Source: Deltaproteobacteria bacterium (GTDB lineage Bacteria; Calditrichota; Calditrichia; RBG-13-44-9; J075). From it: a stretch of 44,555 bases of DNA. A program made the translations under genes and the position numbers. Shown piece after piece: positions 1 to 17,288 of this stretch (position 1 is the stretch's first letter; each line of letters starts with the position of its first letter). The notes beneath the pieces are model-generated. The model had not been told where the DNA came from. It saw only the letters and a program-made list of their open reading frames with translations, and did no database searches. The DNA is taken from contig WYBG01000315.1 of assembly GCA_011526015.1 (NCBI GenBank), positions 1 through 44,555 on the forward strand, in the 5' to 3' direction.

Positions 1-113
1 CCATGTCCTCGCTCCTGGTTTGTGAAAATTGGCGGGCGGAAATCTACCAATTTTCAAAGTCAGGTGCTAACCCAATCGCCACAAAGATTTGAGGCAATAT
101 AAATGCGTCTTAA

Positions 114-680
114 GTGAACGGTATTGATTCTAAAAACTATGGAGAGTTTTTTGAAAAATTGGCTTCTGATAAGACAGAAATTGTTCTTGTAAAAGAATCA
201 CTTGACAAATTTGACTTAAAATATTTTGAGATTGTTAATTACAAGAATAATGAGGTGAAAATACAATTTTTTCCTATCAACATAAAAAACAAAGATATAA
301 AATATTATTCTTTTGCGAAATTCGCTGCATACTTTAGTTGGTATGAAAAAGTATTCGCATTGCTCTTATATATTTTTTTGATTGTATTATTTACAAGAGG
401 ATTATGGGAAACTTTCAGAAAAGCGGGACGAAACAGCAATCTTTCCATAATTCCGATTATTCGGTTCATAGAAATTGGCAAAATATTGGAATTGCCAAAA
501 TGGCAAATATTTATATTATGTATTCCACTTATAAGAATGGTTTTGTCCTATCATATATCTATTAAAACCTGTAAAGCCTATGGACTAAAAGGTAATTTGC
601 TTAAAGGTGTTGGAATAATTTTTCCTGGAATATTATGGACCTATATTGGATTGAATTATAATGTCAAATATTTGGGATGA
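114..680 (+). CDS. DUF5684-like small integral membrane protein with an N-terminal soluble extension
   Basis: GTG-start ORF. The C-terminal half (WETFRKAGRNSNLSIIPIIRFIEIGKILELPKWQIFILCIPL...AYGLKG...GIIFPGILWTYIGL) follows the KAG..W..lIP...WW..l..iP...FGK pattern I associate with the DUF5684 family and has several hydrophobic helices. The next ORF starts 10 nt downstream. Confidence 0.5.
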   Translation: MNGIDSKNYGEFFEKLASDKTEIVLVKESLDKFDLKYFEIVNYKNNEVKIQFFPINIKNKDIKYYSFAKFAAYFSWYEKVFALLLYIFLIVLFTRGLWETFRKAGRNSNLSIIPIIRFIEIGKILELPKWQIFILCIPLIRMVLSYHISIKTCKAYGLKGNLLKGVGIIFPGILWTYIGLNYNVKYLG

Positions 681-689
681 AAGGTTCTT

Positions 690-1301
690 ATGGGAAACGA
701 ATCTCAACTACCCGTTGATGAAATTGTCGGCTTTCTCAATTCCTATCATAATGAAACTCTAATCAAATTAAAAACCAAGTACCCGGAATACAGTGAAATA
801 TTTGAAATTGGCATTAGAGCTGGAGAAGAAATACGCGACAAGAATGAACTTGAAGTAAGAACTGAGCTTTGCATAGAAGGATTAAAGGCAATTGTTCTAT
901 CGTGCGAAGAATACATCCCAAAAATTAGGAAAAAAATCAGAACAAGTAATAGACTTTCCTTCACTGCTCAAATTATAATCCTAATAAGTAGCGGCTCAAT
1001 AATTCTTTTACTAAAAGAAAACTATGGAAAGTTAATGGGGTATATTGGGGCTTCATTGGCTTTGATCGGTTCAATCATATCTTTGATAGCTCAAAACAGG
1101 TTAAGCAATCTCAGGCCAAATTCAGATGATTTAGTTAAGACTTTGGAAAAACTGGTTTCAAACAAATTAGAGGCACAAAGAATTCTGCAAGAATTAAAAA
1201 TTTCCATAAAGTTTCAAAATTCTTTTGAAACTATTAAATCATTTATAATTGCAGGCAATGACCTTTCGTTTAAGACACAGAAGCTCTTGGATTTAATCTG
1301 A
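690..1301 (+). CDS. Hypothetical protein with two central TM helices flanked by helical/coiled regions (possible SLATT-like membrane effector)
   Basis: ATG at 690 is preceded by AAAGG. Two adjacent hydrophobic helices (FTAQIIILISSGSIILLL and LMGYIGASLALIGSIISLIA) sit mid-protein. The SLATT-like idea rests on topology only. Confidence 0.45.
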   Translation: MGNESQLPVDEIVGFLNSYHNETLIKLKTKYPEYSEIFEIGIRAGEEIRDKNELEVRTELCIEGLKAIVLSCEEYIPKIRKKIRTSNRLSFTAQIIILISSGSIILLLKENYGKLMGYIGASLALIGSIISLIAQNRLSNLRPNSDDLVKTLEKLVSNKLEAQRILQELKISIKFQNSFETIKSFIIAGNDLSFKTQKLLDLI

Positions 1302-1355
1302 AACAGAATTGATTCATCTTTATAAAATTTGATCTTGAAAATTGGAGAAAATCTT

Positions 1356-1679
1356 ATGAAGGCACTTACGAGATTCGAATTAGGAGACGGAACCATAATT
1401 TATGTAGAAGATGATTCAATTCAAGGACTAACTAATGTAACTCCGGTAGTACGGGGAGGTGAAATTCCACCTAAGATTAAACAGAAGTTTGAAGGTGAAA
1501 TAGAAAAGGTAAAACCGGTTTCCGAAAAATTGATTTCAGAATTAAGTGGGTTAAGCAAAAAACCTTCTGAAATCGAGGTAGAATTCGGCTTCAAATTGAG
1601 TGGGAGTGTAGGATTTGTAATTACTTCTGGAGAAGCAGAAGCAAATTTTAAGGTAAAATTGGTATGGAAACAAAAATAG
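1356..1679 (+). CDS. Trypco-type (trypsin/CHAT co-occurring, CU044_2847-like) small protein
   Basis: The track ORF starts at a TTG (1329). I prefer the ATG at 1356, preceded by GGAGAAA. N-terminus MKALTRFELGDGTIIYVEDD and C-terminus EIEVEFGFKLSGSVGFVITSGEAEANFKVKLVWK match the family pattern (FEL.dG..v.VEvd ... veFg.kl....g.vi......a.f.V.L.W) as I recall it. Confidence 0.6.
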   Translation: MKALTRFELGDGTIIYVEDDSIQGLTNVTPVVRGGEIPPKIKQKFEGEIEKVKPVSEKLISELSGLSKKPSEIEVEFGFKLSGSVGFVITSGEAEANFKVKLVWKQK

Positions 1680-1687
1680 TAACCCCT

Positions 1688-3202
1688 TTAATCTTGCATT
1701 ATTAAAATTGGAGAAATCCATGTAAAATCATCCCGATTTATAGTAGCCAGTTTGCGTCTTGCATCTAGTAATGCAAGTTCGGGCAGCCCATGTTTTGCCA
1801 ATGATTTATAAAATTCTACTGCAAGGGTTTTTGCGCCTTCATCAGAGACATTCCAGCGGAAACCTAATATTGCTGGAATTCCTGTGTGTGTCAAGAGGCT
1901 ATCTGCAAGTCCTAAGGAGTTATCATTAAGTAACTTAGAGATCTCCCCTGTTTCCATTCCTCTGCAACAACTTAAATAAACGAAGCGAGTTTCAGAATCT
2001 TGAAGAAGCATTTGAAGTTGATCAGCTGCCATTGGTTTGATTTCACCTGCACAATTAGGTTTTTCCCAGAAAAAGATAGAGCTTTTTTCTGGAGATTCTA
2101 CGTCAAAAGAGCCATGTCCTGCATAATGAATTACATGATACTCTTTACATTTTTCTAACTCCTCACAAACCACATCATATGTTGCTTCATTAGTTCGAAT
2201 CGATTTAATAAAGACAGGAATTTGTTTCTCTTCAAACAGTTCCCTTAAAGAATCGTTTAAGATGTTAATCTCTTCATCAACCAAAGGCATATTGCCTATA
2301 TCCGAAGCAATGAGAAGTATTTTAAACTCAGTATGAGAAGCCCAGATCTCATTGTTAAAAAATTCAGGTGTTATAGTTTTTTTCTTTTTTTCAGTATGAC
2401 TAATCAATCTTGTTAATGGATGTCTTAGAACAAGATAATCTTTTTTGTTAAAAAGAAATTCAATTGGTACTTTCAAAAAGTGAATATTTGATACAAATTG
2501 AAGATGTAATTCACGTGGATGTTCTAGTTTGCCATACGTCTCATGATATTTGTCATAGACTTCTTTATGTTCATCAAAAATTTTCCTATATAAATCTTCT
2601 CCTACTTTAGATGATATGTACCGCCAAAAGTTTTGTCTATTCTCGTCATCTTTGAAATTTTGAGAAAACGCCGTTTTTGCCTCGCTGTTAAGTATGTCGA
2701 CCTCAATATCCAATACATTTTTGGTATAGGACTGATAAGTCTTCGCACCACGTAGATTAATATAAATTGAACGTTGCGATTCACATGAAAGAGAGAGTGT
2801 GTAACCTATCTTAGATTTTCTAAATGGAGGCAATTCCTCTAATAATTTATTTACTTTTGCTTCAAGAACTGTTTTACCGTATGGCTTAGGCAAATAATCA
2901 TCTGCCCCTATAGTTAAGCCTTTTGTAACATCTTGATCACTACGCTTATGCGTAAGCATCAATATCTTTATATGTTTGGTCTCAGGGGATGATTTTAAAT
3001 GTTTACATACTTCATACCCGTCCATTTTAGGCATTACGATATCGAGTATAATCAATTCTGGATTATATTTTTTTACTTTTTCTATTGCTTCAATTCCATC
3101 ATGGGCAATCACGACCTCATGCCCAAGACTTTTTAATTGATCTTCAAGAAAAATTACTATTCTTGGATCGTCTTCCGCAATCAATATATTAGCTTTTCTC
3201 AT
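1688..3202 (-). CDS. Response-regulator receiver domain fused to a CHAT (caspase-like) protease domain
   Basis: The N-terminal REC domain reads ILIAEDDP...ELIILDIVMPKMDGYEV...KILMLTHK...GADDYLPKP. The C-terminal CHAT-like domain has a His motif (HVIHYAGHG) and a Cys motif (VYLSCCRG). Its ATG overlaps the kinase stop by 1 nt (TAATG). Confidence 0.85.
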   Translation of the reverse strand: MRKANILIAEDDPRIVIFLEDQLKSLGHEVVIAHDGIEAIEKVKKYNPELIILDIVMPKMDGYEVCKHLKSSPETKHIKILMLTHKRSDQDVTKGLTIGADDYLPKPYGKTVLEAKVNKLLEELPPFRKSKIGYTLSLSCESQRSIYINLRGAKTYQSYTKNVLDIEVDILNSEAKTAFSQNFKDDENRQNFWRYISSKVGEDLYRKIFDEHKEVYDKYHETYGKLEHPRELHLQFVSNIHFLKVPIEFLFNKKDYLVLRHPLTRLISHTEKKKKTITPEFFNNEIWASHTEFKILLIASDIGNMPLVDEEINILNDSLRELFEEKQIPVFIKSIRTNEATYDVVCEELEKCKEYHVIHYAGHGSFDVESPEKSSIFFWEKPNCAGEIKPMAADQLQMLLQDSETRFVYLSCCRGMETGEISKLLNDNSLGLADSLLTHTGIPAILGFRWNVSDEGAKTLAVEFYKSLAKHGLPELALLDARRKLATINRDDFTWISPILIMQD

Positions 3203-6200
3203 TACAATCCTCTCTGCTTTAAAGGTAAAGTAAAGATAAACGTACTTCCTGAGTAGAGTTTACTCTTCTCGACCGCAATTTTACCACCATGCATTTCAAT
3301 ATACTTTTTTACAATATACAAGCCAACACCTGTACCCTGAACTTTAAATTCAGGATGAGAGACAACTTGATACCGCTCGAATATCTTTTCATATTGATTT
3401 TCGGGGATTCCTCTTCCTGTATCTTCTACTCTAACTACAACCTCGCCTTGTTCAACACTAACTAATAATATTACAGACCCTTTGGGAGCCTCAATGTATT
3501 TGATAGCGTTGTAGATCAATTCTGAAACAACAAATTTAATTTTTTCTTCATCTAATAAAATCTCATAATTAGTATTATCTTTAGTATTCAATTTTAACTC
3601 GATTCCCTTCGATTCGGCCCAAAATGTAAACTTTTCGATTACCTTAAGAATTATTGATGATATGTTTACGAATTCGGGATTAAAGGATTCATTGTTTTTT
3701 TGTAATTGAAAATGATATCTGTATTTTTCAATCAAATCTACAGCTTCATTAACACTCGAAAAAGCTAATTCTACTTTGGAGCGCTGATCTTTCGTAATTT
3801 TTCCATATTTTCCATCTAATAGCATCTCTAAACAACTTTTGATCGGGGTGAGAGGGTTACTTAATTCATGATAGGCAGTCGAGAAAAGATCTGTTTTCTC
3901 TTGGTCAGATGCTTTCAGCTGTTCATATGCCTTTTCCAAATCTGATGCTCGCATTTCGAGATTTTGATTTATATTTGCATTTTCTAATGCAATAGCTGCA
4001 TAAGAAGCTAAGTTTTCGAGCCATCTTCGAGCACGCTCTTTGTATGCATTTTTCTCCATGCTCTGAACAGTTAGCTCGCCTATAAATTTGTCTTTTACAA
4101 TGAGAGGTAGGTATATCAGTGATAAAGGAGTACCACTTACCCCCTTCTCATCTTCAATAGGTGCTTTTTCAAAGCGATCATCATTTAGCAAATCATTACT
4201 AATAATAATATCCTTCTCTACATAACATTTCACAGCAGCGCGATTTTTATCCTCTTCGGAGTTTAATGATATAGGATTTGCTTTTGACCTTGTATGATTT
4301 TCAATGTAGAGGTCATATAGCAACAACCCTCTTTCCTCATCTAAACTAATAATTGCAAATGTATATGCATCGACTGCTTTATTAACTTCTTCATAAATTT
4401 TCTCTAAAGTTTGATCAATTGACAGTGTAGAGGTCAATTTTCGGCCAATTTCACTTAAAGTTTCTAAATCTTTATTTCGTGCTTCTGCCTGTTCCTCTTT
4501 GATTTTGTGGAGGTGAATTTTTTTTCTGGCAGAAGATCTGTATAGGGCAAAGATTAAAGAAAAAATCAAACCCAGAGATATAATTAAGGTAGGCAAGAAG
4601 TATTTTTCCGAAATTGGAGAGTCTTTAATTTTTATTTTAAATGACTTTTCCGTTGAGGAGCTTACATCTACTCTAACGTTAAATGTGTATTCTCCGGGTG
4701 GTAAACTAGAATATTCCCTAAAATTACTCGTACTCTTAACGAAACCAGTATCCACCCCTTCAAGTTTAGACTCATAAAGATGTTTTCCTTGACGTGCAAA
4801 ATCAGATGTAGTAAAACTAATTTTGAATGAAGTCTGTGTATATGGTAATTCTATACCCTTCTCAGAAATAGGTCTTTTGGTTGGGACCGTATCACTGCCA
4901 TAAGATTCAAAGTCAGTTATGATCACTTGAGGAGGGTTAGTATCTTGTTTTATAGTTATACTATCGGGATGAAAAACGTTGAACCCATTAATTCCTCCAA
5001 AAAACATCCACCCCTCATTATTCTTAAGATACGCACCTCCATTAAATTCATCCCCCTGGACTCCATCTTCGATAGAAAAGTTAGTAAAAGCTTCTTGATC
5101 ACAATCAAATTTTGAGATGCCTCTGTTCGTACTTAACCATAAATTGTCACGAGCATCGATTAATATTCCATAAATCAAATTATCTAGTAAGCCTTTTTTC
5201 TGATCATACACCTTCGCTGAATCTTTATCAATTTCATATTTTATTAGTCCGTTTTCTGTTCCTAACCACAAACCGTGTTTATTCTGATTTATTGCATAAA
5301 CATTTTCAGTTTTATTAATAACAGTATCTTGTTTTACTGTTTTATTCTCCCCATCACCAACACATTTCCACAACCCTTTTCCCATAGTTCCGATCCATAA
5401 AGTCGCGTTAAATGAATCATCATATAAGGCATAGATAGAGATCGTGTCTAATTCTTGAACTCTATTCGGATAAGATTCAATATCTTTAACCTCCTCATTA
5501 AATTTGTAGCGGAAAAGTCCGCTATCATTCGTTGCAATCCAAAGTGTATTGTCCCGATCCTTTAAAATTTTCAAAATTCTTAACTGTAATGGAAATACTT
5601 TGGAAGGTTCTATCTTTTTCTCTTTTATATCAAAAATATACAGGCCGTCTCCCTCTGTTCCCAAGAAAATTACATCCTTCTCTTTATATATGGACCTAAT
5701 TGTTAGTGCGAAAGGATTACGATTTTGGAAATATGATTTATTGTTTTTGAATTCTGCCTTACAAAAATCATCAGAAAAATTAGCTTCTACCAAACCATAG
5801 CTACTTGTACCAATCCAAATCGTGCCTGATTTATCATTTGGTTCTTGAAAGAAAGACCAAATAAAATTATTCTGTATGTTGAAATCATTAGCAGTATCTA
5901 ATGCGATATTACCGCAAGGTTTATAGTAATAGTGATAGAATTTTTCCTCATGGAGCCTGTTTACCCCCCCACCCAAAGTTCCAATCCATAATCCACCATA
6001 TTCATCTTGATAAATTGAGCGAATTCTGTCGTTACTGATAGATTTATAATTACAGGGATCATAAACGTAATTAATAACCGTATCAATTTTTTTCTTATTA
6101 GGTGACTCAAAGATTAATTTATTAAGCCCGCCCTCCTCAGTTCCAATCCACAATATTTTTGGAGACAACCTATCCTCTAAAATGCATCTGATGAATTTAC

Positions 6201-7155
6201 CAAATTGATTGGGACGCTCTGCCTTTATTTTGGTGGCATAATCTACACTCTCAAAATTAATTTTAGAGATATCGACACTTTGATCTAAAGTTACTTTTGA
6301 TCTCCAAAGGCCATGTCTCTCAGTTCCTATCCATAATACTTCTGAGTTATCTCTATATATCGTTCTTATACTGCATGTATCAAATTCACTAAAGTGGATA
6401 AAAACTTTTTCTTCAGACTTACTTTGATTCTTTTTTCCCAATAGATTTAATCCTTTTCCAGTCCCAATCCACAGGTTTCCTTTCCTATCCTTTTCAATAG
6501 AATAAACATTGTTATGACTTAATGCTTGTAGTTCATCAGTCTTCTTAATTTTTTTTCCATCATTTTTATAAGGATGAAACTCAGACTTCCTTTTATCGAA
6601 TCTATTTAGTCCGCCACCTTCGGTTCCAATCCAAAGAATATTCTTTGTGGTAGACGTATCTTGGAAGATAACTGTAACCCGATTATGGCTTATACTTTGT
6701 TTCGAAGTACCTTTCTTGAAAGACTTGAATTCTTCTTTATATTTATCAAATCTAATTAAACCTCCCGCATTAGTACCAATCCACAAAAGACTTGAATCAC
6801 CTTTGTCTTTTTCTTCGTGTAAACAGAGAATGAATTTATTTAAACTATCTCCAAACTGCTTATTATAAACAATGAAATCCTTACCATTATATTTATTTAA
6901 GCCATTTTGGGTACCAAACCACATGAGTTTATCCCTATCCTGAAGAATACAATTCACAGCATTAATGGATAAACCATCCTTCGTTGTTAAATGTTGAAAC
7001 TGAACCTCTTTTTCCTCCTGACCGGCATATAGAGCTACCCCCCAAATGAATACTAAAGAAAATAGAATAATGGTTGTAAGTAGTTGGAAGGACAATGTTG
7101 ATTGAATAAGAATTAAATTAGACCTTAAAGATAAAAAATCTTTCGTCTCCATCAT
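3202..7155 (-). CDS. Sensor histidine kinase: TM, two-component-regulator propeller repeats, Y_Y_Y, TM, GAF, HisKA, HATPase_c
   Basis: An N-terminal TM helix is followed by many LWIGT..GL propeller repeats and a Y_Y_Y-like segment (YESKLEGVD...PPGEYTFNVRV). A second TM helix (LPTLIISLGLIFSLIFALY), a GAF-like region, the H-box FSTAYHELSNPLTPI and ATPase motifs (DTGRGIP, GTGVGLYIVKKYIEMHGG) follow. GAGGAGG precedes the ATG. Confidence 0.85.
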   Translation of the reverse strand: MMETKDFLSLRSNLILIQSTLSFQLLTTIILFSLVFIWGVALYAGQEEKEVQFQHLTTKDGLSINAVNCILQDRDKLMWFGTQNGLNKYNGKDFIVYNKQFGDSLNKFILCLHEEKDKGDSSLLWIGTNAGGLIRFDKYKEEFKSFKKGTSKQSISHNRVTVIFQDTSTTKNILWIGTEGGGLNRFDKRKSEFHPYKNDGKKIKKTDELQALSHNNVYSIEKDRKGNLWIGTGKGLNLLGKKNQSKSEEKVFIHFSEFDTCSIRTIYRDNSEVLWIGTERHGLWRSKVTLDQSVDISKINFESVDYATKIKAERPNQFGKFIRCILEDRLSPKILWIGTEEGGLNKLIFESPNKKKIDTVINYVYDPCNYKSISNDRIRSIYQDEYGGLWIGTLGGGVNRLHEEKFYHYYYKPCGNIALDTANDFNIQNNFIWSFFQEPNDKSGTIWIGTSSYGLVEANFSDDFCKAEFKNNKSYFQNRNPFALTIRSIYKEKDVIFLGTEGDGLYIFDIKEKKIEPSKVFPLQLRILKILKDRDNTLWIATNDSGLFRYKFNEEVKDIESYPNRVQELDTISIYALYDDSFNATLWIGTMGKGLWKCVGDGENKTVKQDTVINKTENVYAINQNKHGLWLGTENGLIKYEIDKDSAKVYDQKKGLLDNLIYGILIDARDNLWLSTNRGISKFDCDQEAFTNFSIEDGVQGDEFNGGAYLKNNEGWMFFGGINGFNVFHPDSITIKQDTNPPQVIITDFESYGSDTVPTKRPISEKGIELPYTQTSFKISFTTSDFARQGKHLYESKLEGVDTGFVKSTSNFREYSSLPPGEYTFNVRVDVSSSTEKSFKIKIKDSPISEKYFLPTLIISLGLIFSLIFALYRSSARKKIHLHKIKEEQAEARNKDLETLSEIGRKLTSTLSIDQTLEKIYEEVNKAVDAYTFAIISLDEERGLLLYDLYIENHTRSKANPISLNSEEDKNRAAVKCYVEKDIIISNDLLNDDRFEKAPIEDEKGVSGTPLSLIYLPLIVKDKFIGELTVQSMEKNAYKERARRWLENLASYAAIALENANINQNLEMRASDLEKAYEQLKASDQEKTDLFSTAYHELSNPLTPIKSCLEMLLDGKYGKITKDQRSKVELAFSSVNEAVDLIEKYRYHFQLQKNNESFNPEFVNISSIILKVIEKFTFWAESKGIELKLNTKDNTNYEILLDEEKIKFVVSELIYNAIKYIEAPKGSVILLVSVEQGEVVVRVEDTGRGIPENQYEKIFERYQVVSHPEFKVQGTGVGLYIVKKYIEMHGGKIAVEKSKLYSGSTFIFTLPLKQRGL

Positions 7156-7218
7156 GCCTCCTCATGGCAGATATATTCATTCAGGTTTTTGAGCACTAAA
7201 AGTATTTCATCGATTCCA

Positions 7219-8307
7219 TCATTCCCTGTTCAAATCATTTTCCCCCTCCTCCACCGCATGAACTACAATCCCCGTATCCATAACAACGTAGCCCATTCCA
7301 TTCAGCAGTTTCTCCATGGCCACAGGATCATCGAGCGCCTGAAGGAGAATAAGTTTGACAGTCTGGGGGCTTTCAGCGCCGAATTGCGGTAATATTGATT
7401 TTGCCAGCCGCCAATAGGATTTTTCAAGCTGAGTGCGAATGAGCAGCTTAAATTCAGGGCTCATAAACTTTACTGCGTGCGTGAACGGAGGCTTAATTAG
7501 AACCCATTTTAACTTTTCACCCACTCTCGCAAAAAAGTCAACTTGTCCGCCGACAAATCCTGCCCGTGCCAGCATGCCCGATAGAGATTTACTGCCACCC
7601 AATTCCGGCGCCAGGGGAGTGGCAAAAACTCCTTTGGCGCCTTTAAGTATTTTCATAGAGGTTTTTGAAGTGGCCTCGATACTTTTTGCTGCTGCCCTGT
7701 GCGTATAATGCCAGAGCGGCGTGCTTTGACCCGCAGCACGCTTGATGATTGTGCCGGCAGTTTTGAGAGCGCCGGCGACATCCCTTCCTTGCACTACTTT
7801 GGCAGGCGTTACCAACGCTACCTCAATCTGGCCTGCTAATTGGCCGGTCATTTCAGCAAATTTTTCCGGCTCTTCACTTGCCGCTCTCCAATATTCTTCA
7901 ACCAGCTTCTTCATTCCCTTCTTCGTCTGGTCAAAATTTACCACTAACGTATACATCCCTTTCGCCGTTTCGATGGGATGAAGCACCATGTCCAGCATTC
8001 CCTTGCCAGCCTCCAGAGCTCCTTTAACAACCCCTCTTAAATACCCAAACGACTGTTTCATAATCCCAACTTCTTTCAGACTTTCCCACAAAAGTTCGCT
8101 ATTGCGGATTTCGAGTTCGCCGGCTTCTTCTTTATCAGAATAGTGCTTCTCAACCACCCGCCGCACCGCCTGAGTCCCCACCAGTTGCTGCATCTCAAAG
8201 ATCGGATGCGCCTCCTGCGCACTCAACGCAGTTGAACCCGCGGGGTGAAGAACACTTTTGTTCTTATCCGCCTGCTTTATTCTGATCGCTTCAAAAAAAG
8301 GCATCAA
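7219..8307 (-). CDS. Hypothetical protein, putative eCIS payload/effector
   Basis: This is the last GC-rich gene of the eCIS operon. The N-terminal segment IFEMQQLVGTQAVRRVVE resembles the LQR.iGNqAv.rLl leader seen at the N-termini of DUF4157/eCIS-associated proteins. The internal LWHYTHRAAAKSIE...GAKGVFATP loosely resembles HYD1-type ART toxin signatures (weak). Confidence 0.5.
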   Translation of the reverse strand: MMPFFEAIRIKQADKNKSVLHPAGSTALSAQEAHPIFEMQQLVGTQAVRRVVEKHYSDKEEAGELEIRNSELLWESLKEVGIMKQSFGYLRGVVKGALEAGKGMLDMVLHPIETAKGMYTLVVNFDQTKKGMKKLVEEYWRAASEEPEKFAEMTGQLAGQIEVALVTPAKVVQGRDVAGALKTAGTIIKRAAGQSTPLWHYTHRAAAKSIEATSKTSMKILKGAKGVFATPLAPELGGSKSLSGMLARAGFVGGQVDFFARVGEKLKWVLIKPPFTHAVKFMSPEFKLLIRTQLEKSYWRLAKSILPQFGAESPQTVKLILLQALDDPVAMEKLLNGMGYVVMDTGIVVHAVEEGENDLNRE

Positions 8308-8323
8308 TTCCCTCGATTCCTCT

Positions 8324-8545
8324 TCATTTCGCTTTGCCGGTTTTCTCCCCTTTGGGATTATTCTCCTCCCCCTCCTTCCCCAACTCCTCCTCCAACACCT
8401 GAATCGCCCCGCTGATGCGCAGCAGGGTGCTGCGCAGGTTGGCTTCCTGGGCTTCCAATTCCGCTAACCGCTTCTGGCCGGCTTCGAATTCGGCTTTAAG
8501 CTCAGCGAGTCGTTTTTTTAGCTGTTCCTGCATATTGTTCTCCAC
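8324..8545 (-). CDS. Small coiled-coil protein (possible fibre-assembly or adaptor factor)
   Basis: 73 aa with heptad-like LAELKAEFEAGQKRLAELEAQEANL and a charged lysine/glutamate tail. It is tightly packed between the fibre gene and the putative payload gene. Confidence 0.5.
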   Translation of the reverse strand: MENNMQEQLKKRLAELKAEFEAGQKRLAELEAQEANLRSTLLRISGAIQVLEEELGKEGEENNPKGEKTGKAK

Positions 8546-8549
8546 ACTT

Positions 8550-10748
8550 TCACTTTACCAGCCATAACTCTACTTTATCCGAAATGTCTTTAATTTTAAT
8601 CCAACTGGGAGCGACAGGTTGACCTTTGCGCAGCGGTAATTGGCCCAGCAATCCCACGCAATTCCATTCCCCCCGTTTTTCCCGGGGAATGTATTTTTGG
8701 GTCTCATCATAATCGGGATTCAATTTCGGGCGAAGTTTCTTTTCGAATTTTCCGGTTCCTGCCATTACCGGGTTTCCTTCTTCATCCAAAACATCAATTT
8801 CTTCAGTTACTTTCTTTTTACCTTTTTCATCTTTTTTAATCACCTTTTCTTTTTTCGGAGCCATGATCTCCTCTTTGTATTCTTCCATAATCACCTGGCC
8901 AAATTCATCTCGAAGATATTTTTTGGGCCACTCTTTATAACAATTCCCTACGATAGAGGGGTTCGCAGATATAATACCGATGGGAACATCTCCTTTCATT
9001 GCAGATCTGATTTTCCCCCTTTCTGTTAACTTTACAGATGTTCCAATGGGAATCTCAGAGGCGTTATCGGATTCGAAATACTCAGCATAGTCAGTATTCG
9101 TCGTATACCACCCTACCGAACTATAACAGCGGCCTCGAACATCTAATCGGTCATCTTCAGGATCAATCACAAATGGTCCAATACCAACATGACCGCCTAT
9201 ATAGTTATATCCCCCCCCTATTCTCATTAAAGTTGCATACCCAAGCCGAGGAACGGGATATCCTATGTGAAATATCCCTAATAATCCTACATTTAATTTT
9301 AGTTCCTTGGTAGAAACTCTGGAAAACCACATTTGATTAGCATTTGGAGCGGATGTACTTATCGCCAAACTGCCATTTACATCTAAGGTTCCCTGGGGAT
9401 CAGCCGTGCCAATCCCAACCTTCCCCTTCACAATCAAATCATTTTTACCGGGATTGGCATAATTATAATTGTCGGACACTAAAATTCCACCTGCTTGTAA
9501 TCCCCAGGCAGAGGTTTCACCGGTTGCGTTTATAAGTTTAAGATAGTGGTTGTGTTCTACGTTATCGGAAGCGCCATATAAAACTACACTTCCTCCTTGT
9601 TTGTCAAGCACAACATCTCCGGCAACGTGTAATTTTTTAGCAGGGCTTGTCGTTCCGATACCAATATTCCCGGTAGCATTCGAGATAAATAACCTGTCTG
9701 TCCCGGAAGTTCGCAAATGGAGATTGGTCGTTCCCTCTCCATCGAACACGGCGCCGCCCGTTCCCACCCAGAATTGAGCGCTTTTACTTCCATCCGCATT
9801 TTCAATTCGTAATCCACGCTGGGAGCTGGATGCAGTTTCTTTTATTACCAGGCGATAGTTGCCGGTAGTAATCGTACCGATGCCGACATTGCCGGTCCCC
9901 CTGATCACCAGGGAGGGTTCTACAATGCCATCATTACCCGTATTCACAAATACGATGCCGCCATCCGGATCGGGGTCGTTACCATCTGTTTTCTCTATAA
10001 TAAGGGCATCCAGGCTGGAGCCAAAAAAATGGTTCTCCTGTCTTATCCTGAAACCATCCGAATTCGGGGTTCCGGATTCATTTGTTCGATGGAAAAGTAA
10101 TGTTACTGGGGATCCGGAATTTGATAATTTTATAGCTCCCTGGACATCCAGGGAGCCTTCCAACCTTGCCAGCCGGTTTTCCTCCAGTCTCAAATATGCC
10201 CATTCGCCCTCCGGAAATTTTGGATCCCCGATAGTCAGGCTGCCGGCAGCGCCGGAAATCCGGCGGTGGTTGGGCGGCTCGCCCTCTCCAACCGGCTCCT
10301 GAACGATCCCGCCGGCAATTTGAACCACCCCCAGGATCAACTGACTGCCGGGGTCCGCCGGGGGATTCTCCAGAATTTCGATTTCCCATTTCTCGGTCCA
10401 GCGGGTGCGCTCTTCGGAGGTCAGGTTGCCTTCCGGGGGATCGGTTTTCTCCTCGTAATACTTGATGGTGACATACCGGCTTGCGCTGCCGCTTACCGCA
10501 ATGGATTTAGTCTCTGCCAGCGGCAGAACAATCTCCCGCCCGGAACTGTCAATTGCCATTCCCGGGGAGATGCGGATCTCCTGGTCGCTCTCTTTGCTGA
10601 CCAGCAGCCCCTTCACCACCCCGGAAGTGTGCAGGCTGCGGTTGTGGCGGCGGCACTTTTCCAGGTGGTATTTTTGCTCATCGGTAAAATCCGCTTCTTT
10701 TAAAAATTGCTGATCGTAATAATGCAGACGTTTGATCTCTTCCGGCAT
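8550..10748 (-). CDS. eCIS tail fibre (Afp13-like) with a C-terminal peptidase-G2-type intramolecular chaperone/autocleavage domain
   Basis: Repeated GN(V/I)GIGT and GKVGIGTADPQGTLDVNGS fibre motifs occur mid-protein. The C-terminal TDYAEYFES...IPIGTSV...PIGIISANPSIVGN...WPKKYLRDEFGQ...REKRGEWNCVGLLGQLP matches the phi29 gp12-like IMC domain pattern. Confidence 0.75.
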   Translation of the reverse strand: MPEEIKRLHYYDQQFLKEADFTDEQKYHLEKCRRHNRSLHTSGVVKGLLVSKESDQEIRISPGMAIDSSGREIVLPLAETKSIAVSGSASRYVTIKYYEEKTDPPEGNLTSEERTRWTEKWEIEILENPPADPGSQLILGVVQIAGGIVQEPVGEGEPPNHRRISGAAGSLTIGDPKFPEGEWAYLRLEENRLARLEGSLDVQGAIKLSNSGSPVTLLFHRTNESGTPNSDGFRIRQENHFFGSSLDALIIEKTDGNDPDPDGGIVFVNTGNDGIVEPSLVIRGTGNVGIGTITTGNYRLVIKETASSSQRGLRIENADGSKSAQFWVGTGGAVFDGEGTTNLHLRTSGTDRLFISNATGNIGIGTTSPAKKLHVAGDVVLDKQGGSVVLYGASDNVEHNHYLKLINATGETSAWGLQAGGILVSDNYNYANPGKNDLIVKGKVGIGTADPQGTLDVNGSLAISTSAPNANQMWFSRVSTKELKLNVGLLGIFHIGYPVPRLGYATLMRIGGGYNYIGGHVGIGPFVIDPEDDRLDVRGRCYSSVGWYTTNTDYAEYFESDNASEIPIGTSVKLTERGKIRSAMKGDVPIGIISANPSIVGNCYKEWPKKYLRDEFGQVIMEEYKEEIMAPKKEKVIKKDEKGKKKVTEEIDVLDEEGNPVMAGTGKFEKKLRPKLNPDYDETQKYIPREKRGEWNCVGLLGQLPLRKGQPVAPSWIKIKDISDKVELWLVK

Positions 10749-10769
10749 GGCGCCCTCCGGTTAATATTC

Positions 10770-11357
10770 TCAGGTAGTAGTTGTGGTTCCTAAAATGGTA
10801 TCCACCCCGATGGTGGAGTGAACCCCGATCTGCAAGGTCGGGTGCTGAATTGAAAGGTTATAGAAAGTATGGGCAGGTTTTTCCCGGTCTAAAAGGGCAA
10901 TAACCTGCCGGGCCTTCCGCCTCAACTCCGGATGGTTATACCCCGGAAATTGCATGATCACTTTAAATCCATGAATATTATCCTCATCGTCCGGGGGCAG
11001 CTCCTCGACATCTACAAATGAGCCTACATAAAGCCGCAGGTAGCTCCGCAAACCCTCCAGTGTGCCCCGCTGCCGGTACAGCTCCCCGATATGGCGCAGC
11101 ACATTGCGGGTCTGCCATTCGCTCCAATCCTCGTCGATGTAAAGCGCCGCCCAGGCCGCTAAGTAGGGCAGGAATGCTGCCGGGGTGCTGGAAGCATTGA
11201 ACAGTTTCGGAAGATCATCCACCCTGCTTTCCAGGTCGTAAAACAGGCGCTGGAAGATTCTTAAGAAGCGGCGCAGAAAATCTTTCGGCGCTTCTTCATG
11301 CTCCCAGAGCGCCGGCGGAAGGTATTGTAAAAAGCTCTCTTCGTTCTCATACGCCAT
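10770..11357 (-). CDS. P2 gpI-like phage tail/baseplate protein (Afp12-like)
   Basis: The track start is a TTG at 11363. I prefer the ATG at 11357. FLQYLPPALWE...FLRRFLRIFQ...LPKLFNASSTPAAFLPYLAAW is typical of the conserved phage-tail-region protein found next to baseplate J. Confidence 0.7.
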   Translation of the reverse strand: MAYENEESFLQYLPPALWEHEEAPKDFLRRFLRIFQRLFYDLESRVDDLPKLFNASSTPAAFLPYLAAWAALYIDEDWSEWQTRNVLRHIGELYRQRGTLEGLRSYLRLYVGSFVDVEELPPDDEDNIHGFKVIMQFPGYNHPELRRKARQVIALLDREKPAHTFYNLSIQHPTLQIGVHSTIGVDTILGTTTTT

Positions 11358-11359
11358 GG

Positions 11360-13402
11360 TCAACTCCCCGGTATGATTTCATTCTCTTCCTGTTCCACGG
11401 TGATGTCATAATTGAGATCGTTTTTCTCTGCAGGACAGATCAATTGGTAATCTTCTAATGCCAGGCGAATCCCGGCGGTCGAAACCGGTGCGTTGTTATG
11501 ATCTACCCCTTCAACGGTTAGCTCCGCCACGTAACTGATCGCCGACAATGCATTCATAATCTGGAAAACCTCCGGGATATACAAACTCTGCCCGATATTC
11601 CACCCCTTCCCCTCGAGGCCGCCTTTTACCGGGTGCAGAAAATCGTAGAGGGTATCCTGGATTTCTTTTTTAACATTTTCGGGATTGTAAGCGGGTTTCG
11701 CATACACCGTGGCTTTTACTTTGATCTCCACGTAATAGGGCTTCAGCGGATCCATTAATATGCTGGTGACCGTTCTCCGTTGATCCAGGTAGCTTTTCAC
11801 CGCGGCGATCAGATCCACATCCGGTTCCGGTCGGCGCTCTTCCTTATCTTCCGGAACGATGATCAGGTTTACCTTTCCGGGGGTTCTTTCGAACGGCTGG
11901 GTTACCCAGGGTTCATTGACCCCTCTTTTCGGCGGGAAGCAGCGCGCCTTCGCCACCTCGGTGCTCGCTTCCCGGGCCAGGAATTCATAATCTTCCGTGC
12001 TGACTGCCCGGTTGTGGGTTCTGATCGCTTCCGGCGCCCGTTTTTTGGTCTCCTCTATCGGTTCCCAGTCGGTTCCGCCCCGGGCGGCTTCCTCGTTGGC
12101 CACCCCGCTGACGCCGGCGATGGGGGTGCGCTGCACCTTAATCGTACGGGCGGGAACGTTTCCGTTGCTTTCCCCGGCAACATAGCGGTAAGAAACCGCT
12201 TTGATCTGGCTGCCCTCGTCGGGAATCCGCCCCTGTCCCGGTTTTTCCGGATTGCCGGTGGGATAATTGCCGAAGGTAATTTCCCCGGTTATTGGGTTGC
12301 ATAAATACTGCTCTACGTTTTCACCGCTAAAATTTTCCACCCGCTGCCAGTTGAGCCAACCGTTTCCTTCATCCACCGCAATCACCAGGTGTGCTAGGCC
12401 GTTTGCTCCCTGGTGCAGGGGGGTGTTTTTCAGGCTAAATATCTGGAAGGGTTTTCCGCTGCTGACCCCCAGCAATTCTTCTTTAACCGTGATAACATTG
12501 CGGGCGGCGGTGATATTGCCGGCTAAGCGCTGCAACTCGATTTCCAGTGGGTTTTGCGCATCCAGGTTAGTCAGCCGCGCACCGATCCAATAAAAGGGTT
12601 CGCTGACTGCTACTTCATTCTCGGCCGGCGTTGCTCCCCAGTCTGCCGGTTTAAAAGATTGCCAGTCGGCAGTATTCGTGATATGGATATTTACCCGGGC
12701 GGATGATTCGAATAAAAACAGGCGGTCCGGGGTTGCCAGGGGCCAGCCCTCCGGCGGCGGCGTTACCGTGGGATTCTGGGGATCGATACCGGAATGGCGC
12801 CAGAAGACCTCCGTATCAGGCTCGCTCGGCGGTTTCAGCCGGAAGGTCAGCGCCAAATCCTGATCGGTGGGCAAAACCAACCCCATCAGGAGCCAGCGGG
12901 TGGCGCCTGCGGGAACGGTCAGGGTTACCTTTTGAAATTTTTCAACACATAACTTGGATGACAAATTTTGATAGGCATTATCTTCTCTTAAAAAAATACA
13001 ACTTTTAATATTCACGGCATGGAATGTCCTGTCGGTTTCGAAGATAATCCCGTCTTCGCTTCCCGAAGGCAGGGTGGATACCTGGGTCCCCCCGGGAATG
13101 GCGAGGGCAGTATCCCCGGTAAGGTCGAAGGTAATATCCGCCTGCGCCGGCATGGGCGGGTCGCGGGTAATCCCGATCAAATTGAGGAATTCGAAGTAAT
13201 TCTTTTCCGGAACCCGGTTGAGGCGGTAGATCATCTGTTCAGTCAGCCAGGCGAACAACTCGATCAGGGTGATCCCCAGGTCCGAAGGATTGTGGTCGGT
13301 CCACTCCGGGGTGTAGCGCGGGATCAATTTTTTTGCCTCCTCAACCAGGTCCACCCAGGTGCGGTCATCTAAATTGGGCGCGGTCAGTTTACCTTTGGAC
13401 AT
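11360..13402 (-). CDS. Baseplate J-like protein (gp6/Afp11-like baseplate wedge)
   Basis: The track start is a TTG at 13420. The ATG at 13402 has AGAAGGA upstream. The N-terminus (LDDRTWVDLVEEAKKLIPRYTPEWTDHNPSDLGITLIELFAWL) is the canonical putative-baseplate-assembly-protein start. The gene lies between the gp25 and gpI homologues. Confidence 0.8.
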   Translation of the reverse strand: MSKGKLTAPNLDDRTWVDLVEEAKKLIPRYTPEWTDHNPSDLGITLIELFAWLTEQMIYRLNRVPEKNYFEFLNLIGITRDPPMPAQADITFDLTGDTALAIPGGTQVSTLPSGSEDGIIFETDRTFHAVNIKSCIFLREDNAYQNLSSKLCVEKFQKVTLTVPAGATRWLLMGLVLPTDQDLALTFRLKPPSEPDTEVFWRHSGIDPQNPTVTPPPEGWPLATPDRLFLFESSARVNIHITNTADWQSFKPADWGATPAENEVAVSEPFYWIGARLTNLDAQNPLEIELQRLAGNITAARNVITVKEELLGVSSGKPFQIFSLKNTPLHQGANGLAHLVIAVDEGNGWLNWQRVENFSGENVEQYLCNPITGEITFGNYPTGNPEKPGQGRIPDEGSQIKAVSYRYVAGESNGNVPARTIKVQRTPIAGVSGVANEEAARGGTDWEPIEETKKRAPEAIRTHNRAVSTEDYEFLAREASTEVAKARCFPPKRGVNEPWVTQPFERTPGKVNLIIVPEDKEERRPEPDVDLIAAVKSYLDQRRTVTSILMDPLKPYYVEIKVKATVYAKPAYNPENVKKEIQDTLYDFLHPVKGGLEGKGWNIGQSLYIPEVFQIMNALSAISYVAELTVEGVDHNNAPVSTAGIRLALEDYQLICPAEKNDLNYDITVEQEENEIIPGS

Positions 13403-13416
13403 CAGCGGTTTCCTTC

Positions 13417-13809
13417 TCAAGGTTGTTGCAGACTGAACGGATAGATAATCTCACCCGGTTCCCGGGTGGATTTTATGTGATAGCGAATGTAGATGATCAA
13501 TTTCCCTTCGGTTTGATCGCTCTCCACGGTTACCTCTTCCAGAACGATCCGCGGCTCCCAGGTGCTTAGCGCCTCTTCCACGTAAAATTTCGCTAAGTTG
13601 GCGGTAGAGGCGTTCAGCGGGGCAAACAGGAGGCTTTTCAGATTGCTGCCGAAATTGGGCCGCATGAGCCGCTCCCCCCGCCCGGTGCCGAGAATAACCA
13701 GAACCGATTGGCGGATTTTTTCATCATCCCGGGCTTCTTGAATACCGCCGCGGTTATTCAGGCTGAGCGGGCAAGAAAAACCTTTATTGAGTGTTTCTCC
13801 ATTCGCCAT
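13417..13809 (-). CDS. GPW/gp25-family baseplate wedge protein (Afp9-like)
   Basis: 130 aa. ILGTGRGERLMRPNFGSNLKSLLFAPLN and the C-terminal beta region are typical of the gp25 lysozyme-like fold family. Confidence 0.85.
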   Translation of the reverse strand: MANGETLNKGFSCPLSLNNRGGIQEARDDEKIRQSVLVILGTGRGERLMRPNFGSNLKSLLFAPLNASTANLAKFYVEEALSTWEPRIVLEEVTVESDQTEGKLIIYIRYHIKSTREPGEIIYPFSLQQP

Positions 13810-13839
13810 AGCGGATTTTCTCCATAACTGAATTTTATA

Positions 13840-14238
13840 TTAATCGCCGGCAAAAACGGTGGTGTCTCCGGAGAGAACATTCCCGTTGGCATTGCCGTCA
13901 TTATGCAAAGTCGGATCGAACATCCTTATGATTGAAAAACCATTGACATACACACTCTGGCTGCCGCGGGTAAATCGAACCGGGCCTGCAACCGTATTGC
14001 TTTTAATGCCTTTCCCTGTACCCGCCTCATCCCCGGTGCTGAAGGGTATCTCGTGTTGTTTGTGCACCACTGCTTTACCCCGAATCCACACGTTAGCAGA
14101 GGAATCCTGAATATCTGCCAGGTCGCCGCTGTTGGGATATGGGACCGGCTGCTGGGAAGAACCTACCGGGGTCCAACATACATCCGGAAATCCATAACAA
14201 ATAAATCCCTTTGTCTGGGTAGCGACCGGTTTGCTCAT
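13840..14238 (-). CDS. PAAR-like spike-tip protein (DUF4150 type)
   Basis: FPDVCWTPVGSSQQPVPYPNSGDLAD...VWIRGKAVV...STGDEAGTGKGIKSNTVAGPVRFTRGSQSVYVNG...RMFDPTLHN matches the DUF4150 PAAR-like pattern. An ATGA overlap couples it to the upstream gene. Confidence 0.75.
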   Translation of the reverse strand: MSKPVATQTKGFICYGFPDVCWTPVGSSQQPVPYPNSGDLADIQDSSANVWIRGKAVVHKQHEIPFSTGDEAGTGKGIKSNTVAGPVRFTRGSQSVYVNGFSIIRMFDPTLHNDGNANGNVLSGDTTVFAGD

Positions 14239-15062
14239 GCCACGCCTCCTTCCACGGTCAGTGAGATATAGCTTTCCGGCGGATATGCCTCAAAGTCCCA
14301 ATACCCCCGCCAGACAATGATATAGGTATCCAGTTCCTTTTCGATAATGACGGTATCCAGAGCAAGCGGAATATTGATCTCTTCCTCGCTGCCATTTTCA
14401 TCCTTAATCCTTAGCGTTGCGGCCGGGCGGGTATCGGGCAGAAACACCTGAAAACTCACCGGCGGCGGTGGGATGATGGGCGGAGCAGGGCGGCGCTCCG
14501 AACGGATGGTTAGTTTTACGCCGTCTTCCAGATGAGGCAAAGGAGTATCGCCGGTGATATTTCGGTCCCAGCCGTTGTAAAATTCATTTTCGAAGCCTTG
14601 TGGCAAAATCATGGATTCCGGATCAAAATGTTCCAAATCTACACCCGCCTGCTGCAACCGTGGGACTTCTCCCCGGGGCGCCCAGCCGTAGATCGTAAAT
14701 GGATTCGTCCCGGTAAAATCTTTTTCAATATGTAAACCGGTATCGGTTTCCACCACAATGTACCACATCCCTGACGGCAGTCCGTCGGGAGGTTCGGGAG
14801 TTCCCAGAATAATCATATCCGTATCGGGCTTAAAGGGAACCATGTCGCTTTCATAGCGGATAACCTTTTCGGGATTATTGTTGAACAGCACATCCCCGCG
14901 GCATACCGCTGCCTGGGATTCCCCGGGCATCACCACCGGCGCATCCATATCCTGAAAAGTTCCTTTGACGATAACGCTCCCTATTTTCTCAATCGTTCCG
15001 TTGGTCATTTTGTGGCCGATCAGGAACTCTGTTGGATAAATGTCATGTTTTTTTATTCGCAC
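14235..15062 (-). CDS. Hypothetical protein, DUF2169-like (VgrG/PAAR-associated adaptor-like), tentative
   Basis: GTG start with GAGG upstream. VKGTFQDMD...VIRYESDMVPFKPDTDMIILGTPEPPDGLP resembles the N-terminal DUF2169 pattern (l.y.sDl.p.Kp.tDvll.G.a..P.g). A proline run (PAPPIIPPPPV) is present. The gene lies between the spike and PAAR genes. Confidence 0.45.
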   Translation of the reverse strand: MRIKKHDIYPTEFLIGHKMTNGTIEKIGSVIVKGTFQDMDAPVVMPGESQAAVCRGDVLFNNNPEKVIRYESDMVPFKPDTDMIILGTPEPPDGLPSGMWYIVVETDTGLHIEKDFTGTNPFTIYGWAPRGEVPRLQQAGVDLEHFDPESMILPQGFENEFYNGWDRNITGDTPLPHLEDGVKLTIRSERRPAPPIIPPPPVSFQVFLPDTRPAATLRIKDENGSEEEINIPLALDTVIIEKELDTYIIVWRGYWDFEAYPPESYISLTVEGGVA

Positions 15063-15072
15063 CTGCAGTACC

Positions 15073-16644: not shown

Positions 16645-16655
16645 CTTTCAATTCC

Positions 16656-17288
16656 TTACCGCGGTTTGGTCAGCCGCTTTGCCGGGGGAATCTTCAATTG
16701 GGTGCCCGGCGGTATCCTTCGCGGATCGTCGATATTGTTGTACTCCGCAATTTCCCGCCAGGCGGCAGGATCGCCCAGCGCTTCTCCGGCAATTCCGCTC
16801 AGGGTCTGCCCGGAGAGCAGGTTATGAACGGTAGGCGGGCCGATAAAAAAGCCCCGCCGCACCTCGATCTCTACCGGTTGAAATTCTTTGAAATTTACCG
16901 AAAGGGTTGCCCGCACCGGGACGCCGTCGCGCAGAAACATGGTAAATTTTTGGCTGACGCTCTCCAGCACGCATTTAAAATTAAACCGCCCCCAGGAGAA
17001 CAACAGCAACGGCGGCGCCTTGCTGATGGGGTTATTATCCAGCAGCGCGGTGATCCGCCGGGTGTGGGCGCGCACATCGGTCTTTGATTCATAGGTATCA
17101 AAAAACAGTTCCATCTTCAAGGTCTGGATATTCCCCCGGATGTATTGAAGGGGCGGATTGGCCAGTCCCGGGATGCCGATCTCCGCAAAGGCGTTGCTCT
17201 TATCCAGGGAATATTCTTCCGGGTTGAACATCACCGGGATCTGTTCATGAGTCTGGGTATTGATAATCAGGGCTTTTTCTAAGGCCAT
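16656..17288 (-). CDS. LysM-containing CIS tube-initiator protein (Afp7/gpU-X-like)
   Basis: The N-terminal tube-like domain reads PVMFNPEEYSLDKSNAFAEIGIPGL...LKMELFFDTY. The C-terminal LysM reads GQTLSGIAGEALGDPAAWREIAEYNNIDDPRRIPPGTQLKIP. Confidence 0.85.
   Translation of the reverse strand: MALEKALIINTQTHEQIPVMFNPEEYSLDKSNAFAEIGIPGLANPPLQYIRGNIQTLKMELFFDTYESKTDVRAHTRRITALLDNNPISKAPPLLLFSWGRFNFKCVLESVSQKFTMFLRDGVPVRATLSVNFKEFQPVEIEVRRGFFIGPPTVHNLLSGQTLSGIAGEALGDPAAWREIAEYNNIDDPRRIPPGTQLKIPPAKRLTKPR

Follow-up and report, generated by a model that had tools for sequence, protein, structure and literature searches.

A Pepco/Trypco1 gene convergent with a receiver-CHAT gene, beside a truncated two-gene cassette, in a low-G+C island of a Calditrichota metagenome-assembled genome

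The stretch of DNA analysed here (the window) is a whole contig of 44,555 nucleotides (nt) (WYBG01000315.1, numbered C213) from the 88%-complete, 53.8% G+C metagenome-assembled genome (MAG) GCA_011526015.1, which is assigned to the Calditrichota. Close to its left end, three short plus-strand genes, termed g1', g2 and g3 (114-1679), run towards a minus-strand gene for a receiver domain fused to a caspase-like CHAT domain (REC-CHAT). An initial annotation, made from the letters of the DNA, had taken these genes and the CHAT protein for one protease-activated, membrane-disrupting module. The interpretation favoured here, with modest confidence, is that the trio belongs to two unrelated modules lying side by side. 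One consists of g3, which encodes a Pepco (Trypco1) protein, together with REC-CHAT and a sensor histidine kinase, and Pepco is probably the effector of this coupled pair. The other, g1' with g2, is a broken remainder of a two-gene cassette of its own, so far undescribed. The Pepco part of the earlier proposal is therefore retained, as a plausible membrane-disrupting effector of CHAT, whereas g1' and g2 do not look like substrates of CHAT or effectors acting with it.

The layout of the trio is essentially as first described. Three open reading frames (ORFs) are present on the plus strand, with spacers of 9 nt between g1' and g2 (formerly given as 10 nt) and 54 nt between g2 and g3. The stop codons of g3 and REC-CHAT are convergent and stand 8 nt apart (1680-1687). 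As this gap is too small for a terminator, the two transcripts must overlap. A terminator scan of positions 1-3400 placed none in the gap, and the promoter and terminator scans were indistinguishable from those of shuffled sequence. The start of g3 (1356-1679, plus strand) is the ATG at 1356, which has GGAG 8 nt ahead of it; the TTG at 1329 merely opens the longest ORF. The resulting protein of 107 amino acids (aa) has no signal peptide. It matches Pfam Trypco1 (PF19493) along the whole model, positions 1-98 of 98 (E = 1.4e-22, 80.5 bits, cut-off 24.6), and the NCBIfam family CU044_2847_fam (NF041216; E = 1.8e-16, 60.6 bits, cut-off 23), so that its earlier assignment to the CU044_2847-like Trypco family is confirmed.

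The Trypco1 family goes back to a computational study, in which it was described as a domain that co-occurs with trypsin (Kaur et al., 2020; PMC7159879). Trypco1 and Trypco2 have since been renamed 'Pepco' (Evans et al., bioRxiv 10.1101/2025.11.14.688446). SsPepco, the protein characterized in that study, is a beta-barrel of 9-10 subunits stable to heat and sodium dodecyl sulfate (SDS). Its C-terminal tail is cut off after a conserved Ile by the partner protease, and only the precisely truncated form kills Escherichia coli (bioRxiv 10.1101/2025.11.14.688446). The earlier remark that the family had been described only computationally is thus outdated, a pore toxin having been demonstrated experimentally in the same work. 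By its sequence, g3 is a full-length member of this family of latent, protease-activated beta-barrel pore toxins. The C-terminus of the window's Pepco reads EANF-K99-V100-KLVW104-KQK, and the segment F98-K99-V100-K-L-V-W104-KQK aligns with the [YF][EK][IV]TLKW of protease-paired Pepcos. The region of V100 may be equivalent to the cleavage-site I97 of SsPepco, the alignment having been made to other, protease-paired Pepcos.

The convergent gene (1688-3202, minus strand) encodes a REC-CHAT response regulator of 504 aa, with matches to Pfam Response_reg (E = 1.8e-26, 92.9 bits, cut-off 30.2) and CHAT (PF12770; E = 1.3e-24, 87.6 bits, cut-off 24). The receiver residues D11/D12, D54, T84 and K106 are present, and the CHAT dyad is intact (G-H363-G and C412/C413). 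The sensor histidine kinase of 1317 aa is encoded at 3202-7155, also on the minus strand. Eight Reg_prop repeats, which form beta-propellers, are followed by Y_Y_Y, a transmembrane segment, GAF, HisKA and HATPase_c. The stop codon of the kinase gene and the start codon of REC-CHAT share 1 nt (TAATG), an overlap that couples the two genes translationally. A relative of the island from another sample, locus L096, carries the same island genes at 86-90% nucleotide identity. The arrangement of kinase and REC-CHAT is kept there despite an identity of only 47% between the two REC-CHAT proteins, and the L096 allele retains G-H363-G and the second Cys of the dyad (C413). Both REC-CHAT and the kinase look functional.

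In the mechanism proposed for these three genes, the membrane kinase would sense an extracytoplasmic cue through its beta-propeller/Y_Y_Y region and phosphorylate D54 of the receiver. The phosphorylated receiver would then free or dimerise the caspase-like CHAT domain, which may trim Pepco at its short C-terminal tail, in the region of F98-K99-V100. Once trimmed, Pepco would act as a beta-barrel pore and permeabilise the membrane, and the cell would die or stop growing, as it does in abortive infection or programmed death.

The proteases that accompany Pepco genes were surveyed in three samples, cyanobacterial, species-genome and metagenome, comprising about 200 loci besides the window. The cyanobacterial sample holds 40 Trypco1 loci, found in 30 of 151 genomes. 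A trypsin-like gene lies immediately downstream on the same strand in 20 of the 40, a divergent Peptidase_C14 caspase gene is present in six, and the remaining 14 have no recognised protease. The Peptidase_C14 partners are either stand-alone proteins or fusions, to nSTAND1 with FGE, WD40 or HisKA-HATPase, or to iSTAND. The second sample, 80 species-genome loci picked by similarity to the window's Pepco, has an adjacent trypsin gene in 73 cases, none in six and CHAT in one. In this last locus (L188, an Acidobacteriaceae MAG), a 946-aa protein with CHAT and tetratricopeptide repeats (CHAT-TPR) begins 4 nt after Pepco; it matches Pfam CHAT at E = 2.9e-26 and, by BLASTP, the CHAT domain of the window at 2e-12. 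Among the 79 metagenome loci, 12 of which are on contigs too short to judge, the partner is trypsin in 56 and CHAT in nine (gaps of -3 to 46 nt), with no protease in two. The CHAT partners in this sample are CHAT-TPR, CHAT-TonB_C, or CHAT followed by unknown sequence. Pepco-CHAT is therefore a recurrent minority pairing.

Simpler searches returned little. A word-index search for homologues of Pepco gave only three clusters. The search for related loci with the whole REC-CHAT protein was dominated by receiver domains, a CHAT relative being found in 0 of 80 loci, and the same search with the CHAT part alone gave no match.

The CHAT-paired Pepcos also share a signature. In all 11 of them (11/11, the proteins of the window and L096 included), F-K-[V/I] stands just ahead of the xLxW end. 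Lys occupies the same position in 20 of 121 trypsin-paired Pepcos, most of which have Y-E-I, a contrast that is inflated by relatedness. The Pepcos paired with Peptidase_C14 in cyanobacteria are of a different subtype and end in C-x-F-P. The Lys of F-K-[V/I] is accordingly a concrete candidate for the P1 residue of a clan CD protease. Because related Pepcos adjoin CHAT in 10 other loci and share F-K-[V/I], the window's Pepco is likely to be the effector of REC-CHAT.

In two metagenome loci (L252, 4837-7446, and L261, 979-3546), CHAT-TonB_C fusions are encoded 3-4 nt downstream of Pepco, which suggests that CHAT sensors may also be anchored in the envelope. In a cyanobacterial genome (G122; L149, 2097-4886), a Peptidase_C14-nSTAND1-HisKA-HATPase_c fusion is divergent from the Pepco gene; here, too, a Pepco-protease module is connected with phosphorelay signalling. 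A further locus, from a Zixibacteria MAG (L152, 1048-8353), holds one of the closest relatives of the window's Pepco outside its lineage (45% identity). This Pepco gene overlaps a Trypsin_2-NB-ARC-TPR gene and is divergent from that of a 1221-aa hybrid kinase with the order REC-GAF-PAS-HisKA-HATPase-REC.

Among known systems, the Pepco-protease modules exemplified by SsPepco-SsAvs4 of Streptomyces subrutilus (bioRxiv 10.1101/2025.11.14.688446) resemble the window in placing a Pepco of about 107-117 aa beside a protease gene. The window's Pepco matches the family hidden Markov model (HMM) end to end and keeps the [V/I]xLxW C-terminus. Its partner, in contrast, is a CHAT protein (clan CD) and not the trypsin-like Avs4, and sensing falls to a receiver under a membrane histidine kinase instead of to a STAND ATPase, FGE or peptidoglycan-binding domain. 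Also, the genes are convergent, whereas in those modules the protease gene follows Pepco in the same direction. Beyond the conserved V/I the tail measures 7 aa, and about 20 aa in the case of SsPepco. Evans et al. (bioRxiv 10.1101/2025.11.14.688446) make no mention of two-component sensing in Pepco modules. The sensors associated with these modules to date are intracellular, of the STAND/Avs type and the like. A protease as the output of a two-component phosphorelay with an outward-facing sensor would be a new input for a known toxin. If this is true, an envelope signal could fire a pore-forming suicide effector in a bacterium.

In its logic the locus is closest to Detocs (DtcA/DtcB/DtcC; Rousset et al., bioRxiv 10.1101/2023.01.24.525353), where a kinase likewise drives a receiver that carries a swappable cell-killing effector in place of a DNA-binding domain. 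It is, however, no member of Detocs. None of the five island genes encodes a stand-alone buffer receiver like DtcB. The kinase is membrane-bound, with beta-propellers in the periplasm, unlike the cytoplasmic TPR kinase of Detocs, and the output is a protease that would need a second protein, Pepco, to kill. PADLOC reported no match of REC-CHAT to its Detocs model; its collection includes no models of g1, g2 or Pepco. The same principle, a sensor-licensed caspase-fold protease that cuts the product of a neighbouring gene and thereby causes death or arrest, is known from bacterial gasdermin-protease pairs and from Craspase (TPR-CHAT/Csx29 with Csx30). The putative substrate in the window differs from these in being a Pepco beta-barrel and not gasdermin or Csx30, and a phosphorelay takes the sensing role that falls there to a CRISPR RNA-guided complex or an unknown trigger.

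The second module begins with g1' (114-680, plus strand), a 188-aa ORF with a GTG start. It had been presented as a small polytopic DUF5684-like membrane protein, and the domain is indeed there: residues 111-188 match DUF5684 (E = 9.6e-12, 45.8 bits, cut-off 27.4, model positions 3-80 of 81), with three transmembrane segments. It is, however, a gene fragment and not a complete small gene. In L096, g1 spans at least 472 aa, is open at its N-terminus, where the contig ends, and has the same DUF5684 domain at its C-terminus. Homology between the window and L096 begins at base 123, with the breakpoint at 122/123. Positions 1-122, at the start of the contig, are a flank of higher G+C that is unrelated to L096, and codons 1-3 of g1', including its GTG start, consist of unrelated junction sequence. 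What is retained is the last ~80 aa of a soluble domain and the C-terminal DUF5684 domain; the signal peptide and the LGHxE/GCx[TS] core of g1-type proteins are absent. Searches of the window contig and of the whole MAG did not find the His/Cys core of g1 or the part upstream of it. As homology starts at 123 and the His/Cys core is missing, g1' is regarded as the stump of a longer gene. The rearrangement at 122/123 removed both the signal peptide and the core, and for this reason the g1'-g2 module is most likely inactive.

Elsewhere, g2 directly follows a g1-type gene in five of five independent loci (L096, L099, L100-102, L103-104 and L150). In Aquimarina (L099) and on two sets of metagenome contigs (L100-102 and L103-104), the g1-type gene is just upstream on the same strand, with a gap of 0-25 nt, and codes for a Pfam-less protein of 410-480 aa homologous to L096 g1. 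In Tenacibaculum (L150), a protein of ~658 aa has the same C-terminal domain, and its reading frame runs into the beginning of the g2 ORF. The motifs L-G-H-x-E and G-C-x-[T/S], ~40 residues apart, are invariant in full-length g1-type proteins. All four complete g1-type proteins have a signal peptide, and the His/Cys domain is therefore predicted to be extracytoplasmic. The neighbours of the g1-g2 loci are island-type genes, including Vsr, a DNA methylase, PLD, an ORC/Cdc6-like gene with PRTase, IS91 and an integrase. Set among restriction, methylase, transposase and other island genes, the g1-g2 pair is a candidate for a new conflict or signalling module. In Aquimarina, a 130-aa ORF (L099, 8640-9032) starts 3 nt after the g2 homologue. 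It has no Pfam or PADLOC match and could be a third component of the module in some lineages.

The His/Cys domain of g1-type proteins has no Pfam match. An AlphaFold2 model of the L100 protein was compared with known structures. Its mean pLDDT (the confidence score of the predictor) is 48, from an alignment of 4 sequences, and reaches 70-88 in the His/Cys domain, where the His and the Cys end neighbouring beta-strands (E272-280 and E312-319). By Foldseek, 25 of its 27 best matches in the PDB are caspases-3, -6 and -7 (probability 0.87-0.99, E of 4e-3 to 3e-2, TM-score ~0.4). The domain probably has a clan CD-like (caspase) fold. The intact cassette would then probably comprise a secreted protein with a caspase-fold His/Cys domain and, as g2, a cytoplasm-facing helical protein with a transmembrane hairpin.

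The distribution of the cassette bears directly on the initial annotation, in which a single integrated system was envisaged, with REC-CHAT cleaving Pepco, g2 and the DUF5684 protein to give a joint membrane-disrupting activity. Pepco recurs beside CHAT, directly upstream of it in the 10 other loci, whereas g2 is tied to its g1-type partner in 5/5. Pepco is absent from the four independent g1-g2 loci other than L096; CHAT is near only one of these, L150, and the other three are without any CHAT. Conversely, neither g1 nor g2 occurs in the ~200 other Pepco loci. An integrated system is also at odds with the loss of the conserved core from g1', since it would have to run with a broken part. In its favour, the five genes are tightly packed in one low-G+C island and stand together in L096 too, and in Tenacibaculum the g1-g2 pair has a TPR-CHAT gene at a distance of 2.3 kb. 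On balance, a system of this kind is considered unlikely. More generally, 'guilt by adjacency' in such islands can fuse unrelated, even broken, modules, and caution is needed in their annotation.

The Tenacibaculum gene just mentioned (L150, 1565-5989; Tenacibaculum sp. MAR_2009_124) encodes a TPR-CHAT protein of 1038 aa, downstream of the g1-like/g2 pair. It is preceded by two small genes resembling an extracytoplasmic function (ECF) sigma/anti-sigma pair. Although this makes a second instance of CHAT close to such a pair, its presence there is probably a coincidence, and the two are probably unrelated.

The second gene of the cassette, g2 (690-1301, plus strand), encodes an intact protein of 203 aa. 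A word-index search found only g2 itself and a 94% variant (2 clusters), and an alignment profile of g2 run against the word-indexed database found only 10 proteins. The idea that g2 is a near-orphan was overturned by exhaustive phmmer, which gave 214 clusters at E <= 1e-3 and 87 at <= 1e-10, nearly all of them full-length at ~200 aa. The family is nevertheless rare; among 301 Bacteroidota genomes, it was found only in the genome on which the survey was centred.

The middle gene had been described as a protein with two transmembrane segments and a SLATT-like topology. The topology stands. An AlphaFold2 (AF2) model built from a 78-sequence alignment is all-helical (pLDDT 90.4, predicted TM-score 0.85). 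Three helices form a small bundle at the N-terminus, a helix of 60 residues then leads into the transmembrane hairpin, and two more helices make up the C-terminus. The hairpin is hydrophobic at ~91-135, within model helices 51-110 and 114-139, and both termini are predicted to be cytoplasmic from the Lys/Arg-rich flanks. Thus g2 is like the SLATT effectors (Burroughs et al., 2015; Pfam SLATT_1-6) in its central two-segment hairpin, its cytoplasmic flanking helices and its size. The relationship to SLATT, on the other hand, failed in the HMM and profile tests, and membership of g2 in that family is not supported, only the topology being alike. No Pfam family covers the g2 family; 2 of 78 members touch SLATT_4, at a best E of 1.3e-4. 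Against NCBIfam SLATT_1, g2 scores 12.3 bits (cut-off 41, E = 0.12). By hhalign, the g2 family profile and one bona fide SLATT_4 protein gave a probability of 2.8%, the template being a single sequence, from the one member found in 151 cyanobacteria. The partner also differs: g2 is paired with a secreted His/Cys protein and not with a nucleotide-signal enzyme (SMODS, SLOG or TIR), none of which appears in the neighbour lists of the five g1-g2 loci. Foldseek with the g2 model returned nothing below E = 0.1 in the PDB. Matches to chemoreceptors and to toxins of the ClyA/MakA/AhlC type (E >= 0.1, TM-scores of 0.2-0.4) were set aside as generic helical hairpins.

Several observations weigh against the assignment of Pepco to REC-CHAT and of g1' and g2 to an unrelated, probably inactive cassette. 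The 10 other Pepco-CHAT pairs are on the same strand, with Pepco upstream and the CHAT domain N-terminal. Neither the convergent arrangement nor REC-CHAT, in which CHAT is C-terminal, was found in any of the ~200 other Pepco loci, and REC-CHAT with Pepco is known from one lineage only (the window and L096). In a poorly resolved tree of 180 Pepcos, the window's protein groups, by a long branch, with Pepcos whose partner is trypsin. Pairing with CHAT must have arisen at least three times on this tree; from these origins and the position of the window's Pepco, partner swapping appears to be common. The caspase fold of g1-type proteins was called from a shallow alignment of 4 sequences, with Foldseek E-values no lower than 4e-3. 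Also, g1' and g2 are under purifying selection relative to L096 (omega of 0.26-0.28), which could mean that they retain a function or that the truncation happened only very recently. Finally, in L096 the genes g1, g2 and Pepco point the same way and are separated by short spacers, and an operon link between them is possible.

This last point leads to an alternative in which Pepco belongs to a g1-g2-Pepco operon and is processed by the caspase-fold g1 protein, so that REC-CHAT and the kinase are unrelated to it and Pepco has been orphaned in the window by the loss of g1. The co-directional order is seen in the window as well as in L096, the g1-type proteins have invariant His and Cys residues in a probable caspase fold, and Pepco is normally on the same strand as its protease. 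Nonetheless, the g1-type His/Cys domain is predicted to be extracytoplasmic and Pepco is without a signal peptide, the other four g1-g2 loci are without Pepco, a canonical Pepco is immediately upstream of its protease and not two genes downstream, and the Lys signature fits the CHAT-paired Pepcos. Service of Pepco to g1 therefore appears improbable, and the pairing of Pepco with REC-CHAT is preferred.

All five genes lie in a low-G+C island of ~7 kb (~97-7190) with 32-35% G+C. The first 5 kb of the contig have the lowest G+C of 669 five-kb segments of the MAG (mean 0.537, sd 0.031). Identical proteins in the same five-gene order were recovered from independent Logan assemblies of at least eight public samples, and one Logan contig of 10.6 kb crosses the G+C break into the neighbouring genes. 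As independent assemblies repeat the order and cross the break, the five-gene arrangement is real and not a chimera of binning or assembly; a chimeric contig as the source of the G+C break was ruled out by the independent assemblies that span the 7.2-kb junction. Trypco1 was found in 2 of 86 species genomes of the host phylum; both further genomes of the genus lack it (0/2). This rarity fits horizontal acquisition.

Divergence from L096 is uneven along the island. Synonymous divergence (dS) is 0.11 for g1' and g2, 0.16 for the sensor part of the kinase and 0.30 for Pepco, as compared with saturated values of 1.7-3.2 for the kinase GAF and transmitter and for REC-CHAT, which are 38-60% identical in amino acid sequence. 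With a saturated core between flanks of low dS, the signalling core and the protease appear to have been swapped together, in one block, for a distant allele. The ratio of nonsynonymous to synonymous divergence (dN/dS) is 0.15-0.42 throughout, which argues against general decay. This ratio bears on the view that the island is decaying cargo, in which Pepco, g2 and g1' are non-functional and the adjacency to REC-CHAT has no functional meaning. Such decay is suggested by the clear truncation of g1, by the loss of the left end of the island and by the scarcity of Trypco1 in the phylum and genus. Set against it, besides dN/dS, are the intact frames and catalytic residues of Pepco, g2, REC-CHAT and the kinase, and the identical proteins in many samples. 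Decay of the whole island is accordingly judged very unlikely, and the reading with a functional Pepco, REC-CHAT and kinase is kept.

Next to the island, a complete extracellular contractile injection system (eCIS) locus occupies 7219-24517 on the minus strand. Its genes include those for a Peptidase_G2/IMC fibre, Baseplate_J, a spike, eCIS_core/DUF4157, a sheath and an AAA+ ATPase. Between its end and the kinase gene, which like REC-CHAT is on that strand, there are 63 nt, and the eCIS-kinase junction is 88% identical in L096. Extracellular contractile injection particles need lysis of the cell for their exit. These points would suit a different role for the same biochemistry, in which kinase, REC-CHAT and Pepco were captured at the 3' end of the eCIS operon as a signal-controlled switch for lysis and release, and not for anti-phage suicide. 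An extracellular cue would then open Pepco pores and free phage-tail-like particles, and protease-activated pore toxins would act beyond anti-phage suicide. Such a role is judged very unlikely, as the cassette, at 33% G+C compared with ~46-55% for the eCIS genes, looks like a later insertion, and Pepco-protease modules occur in many genomes without a nearby eCIS.

The left boundary of the island was also inspected. The left end of the window has no tRNA and no Rfam match, and an empty site or left flank sought in five related genomes gave no match. Five Logan contigs from five different samples all start exactly at base 97. This common start indicates a branch of the assembly graph, from a strain variant or a repeat, just to the left of the g1' stump.

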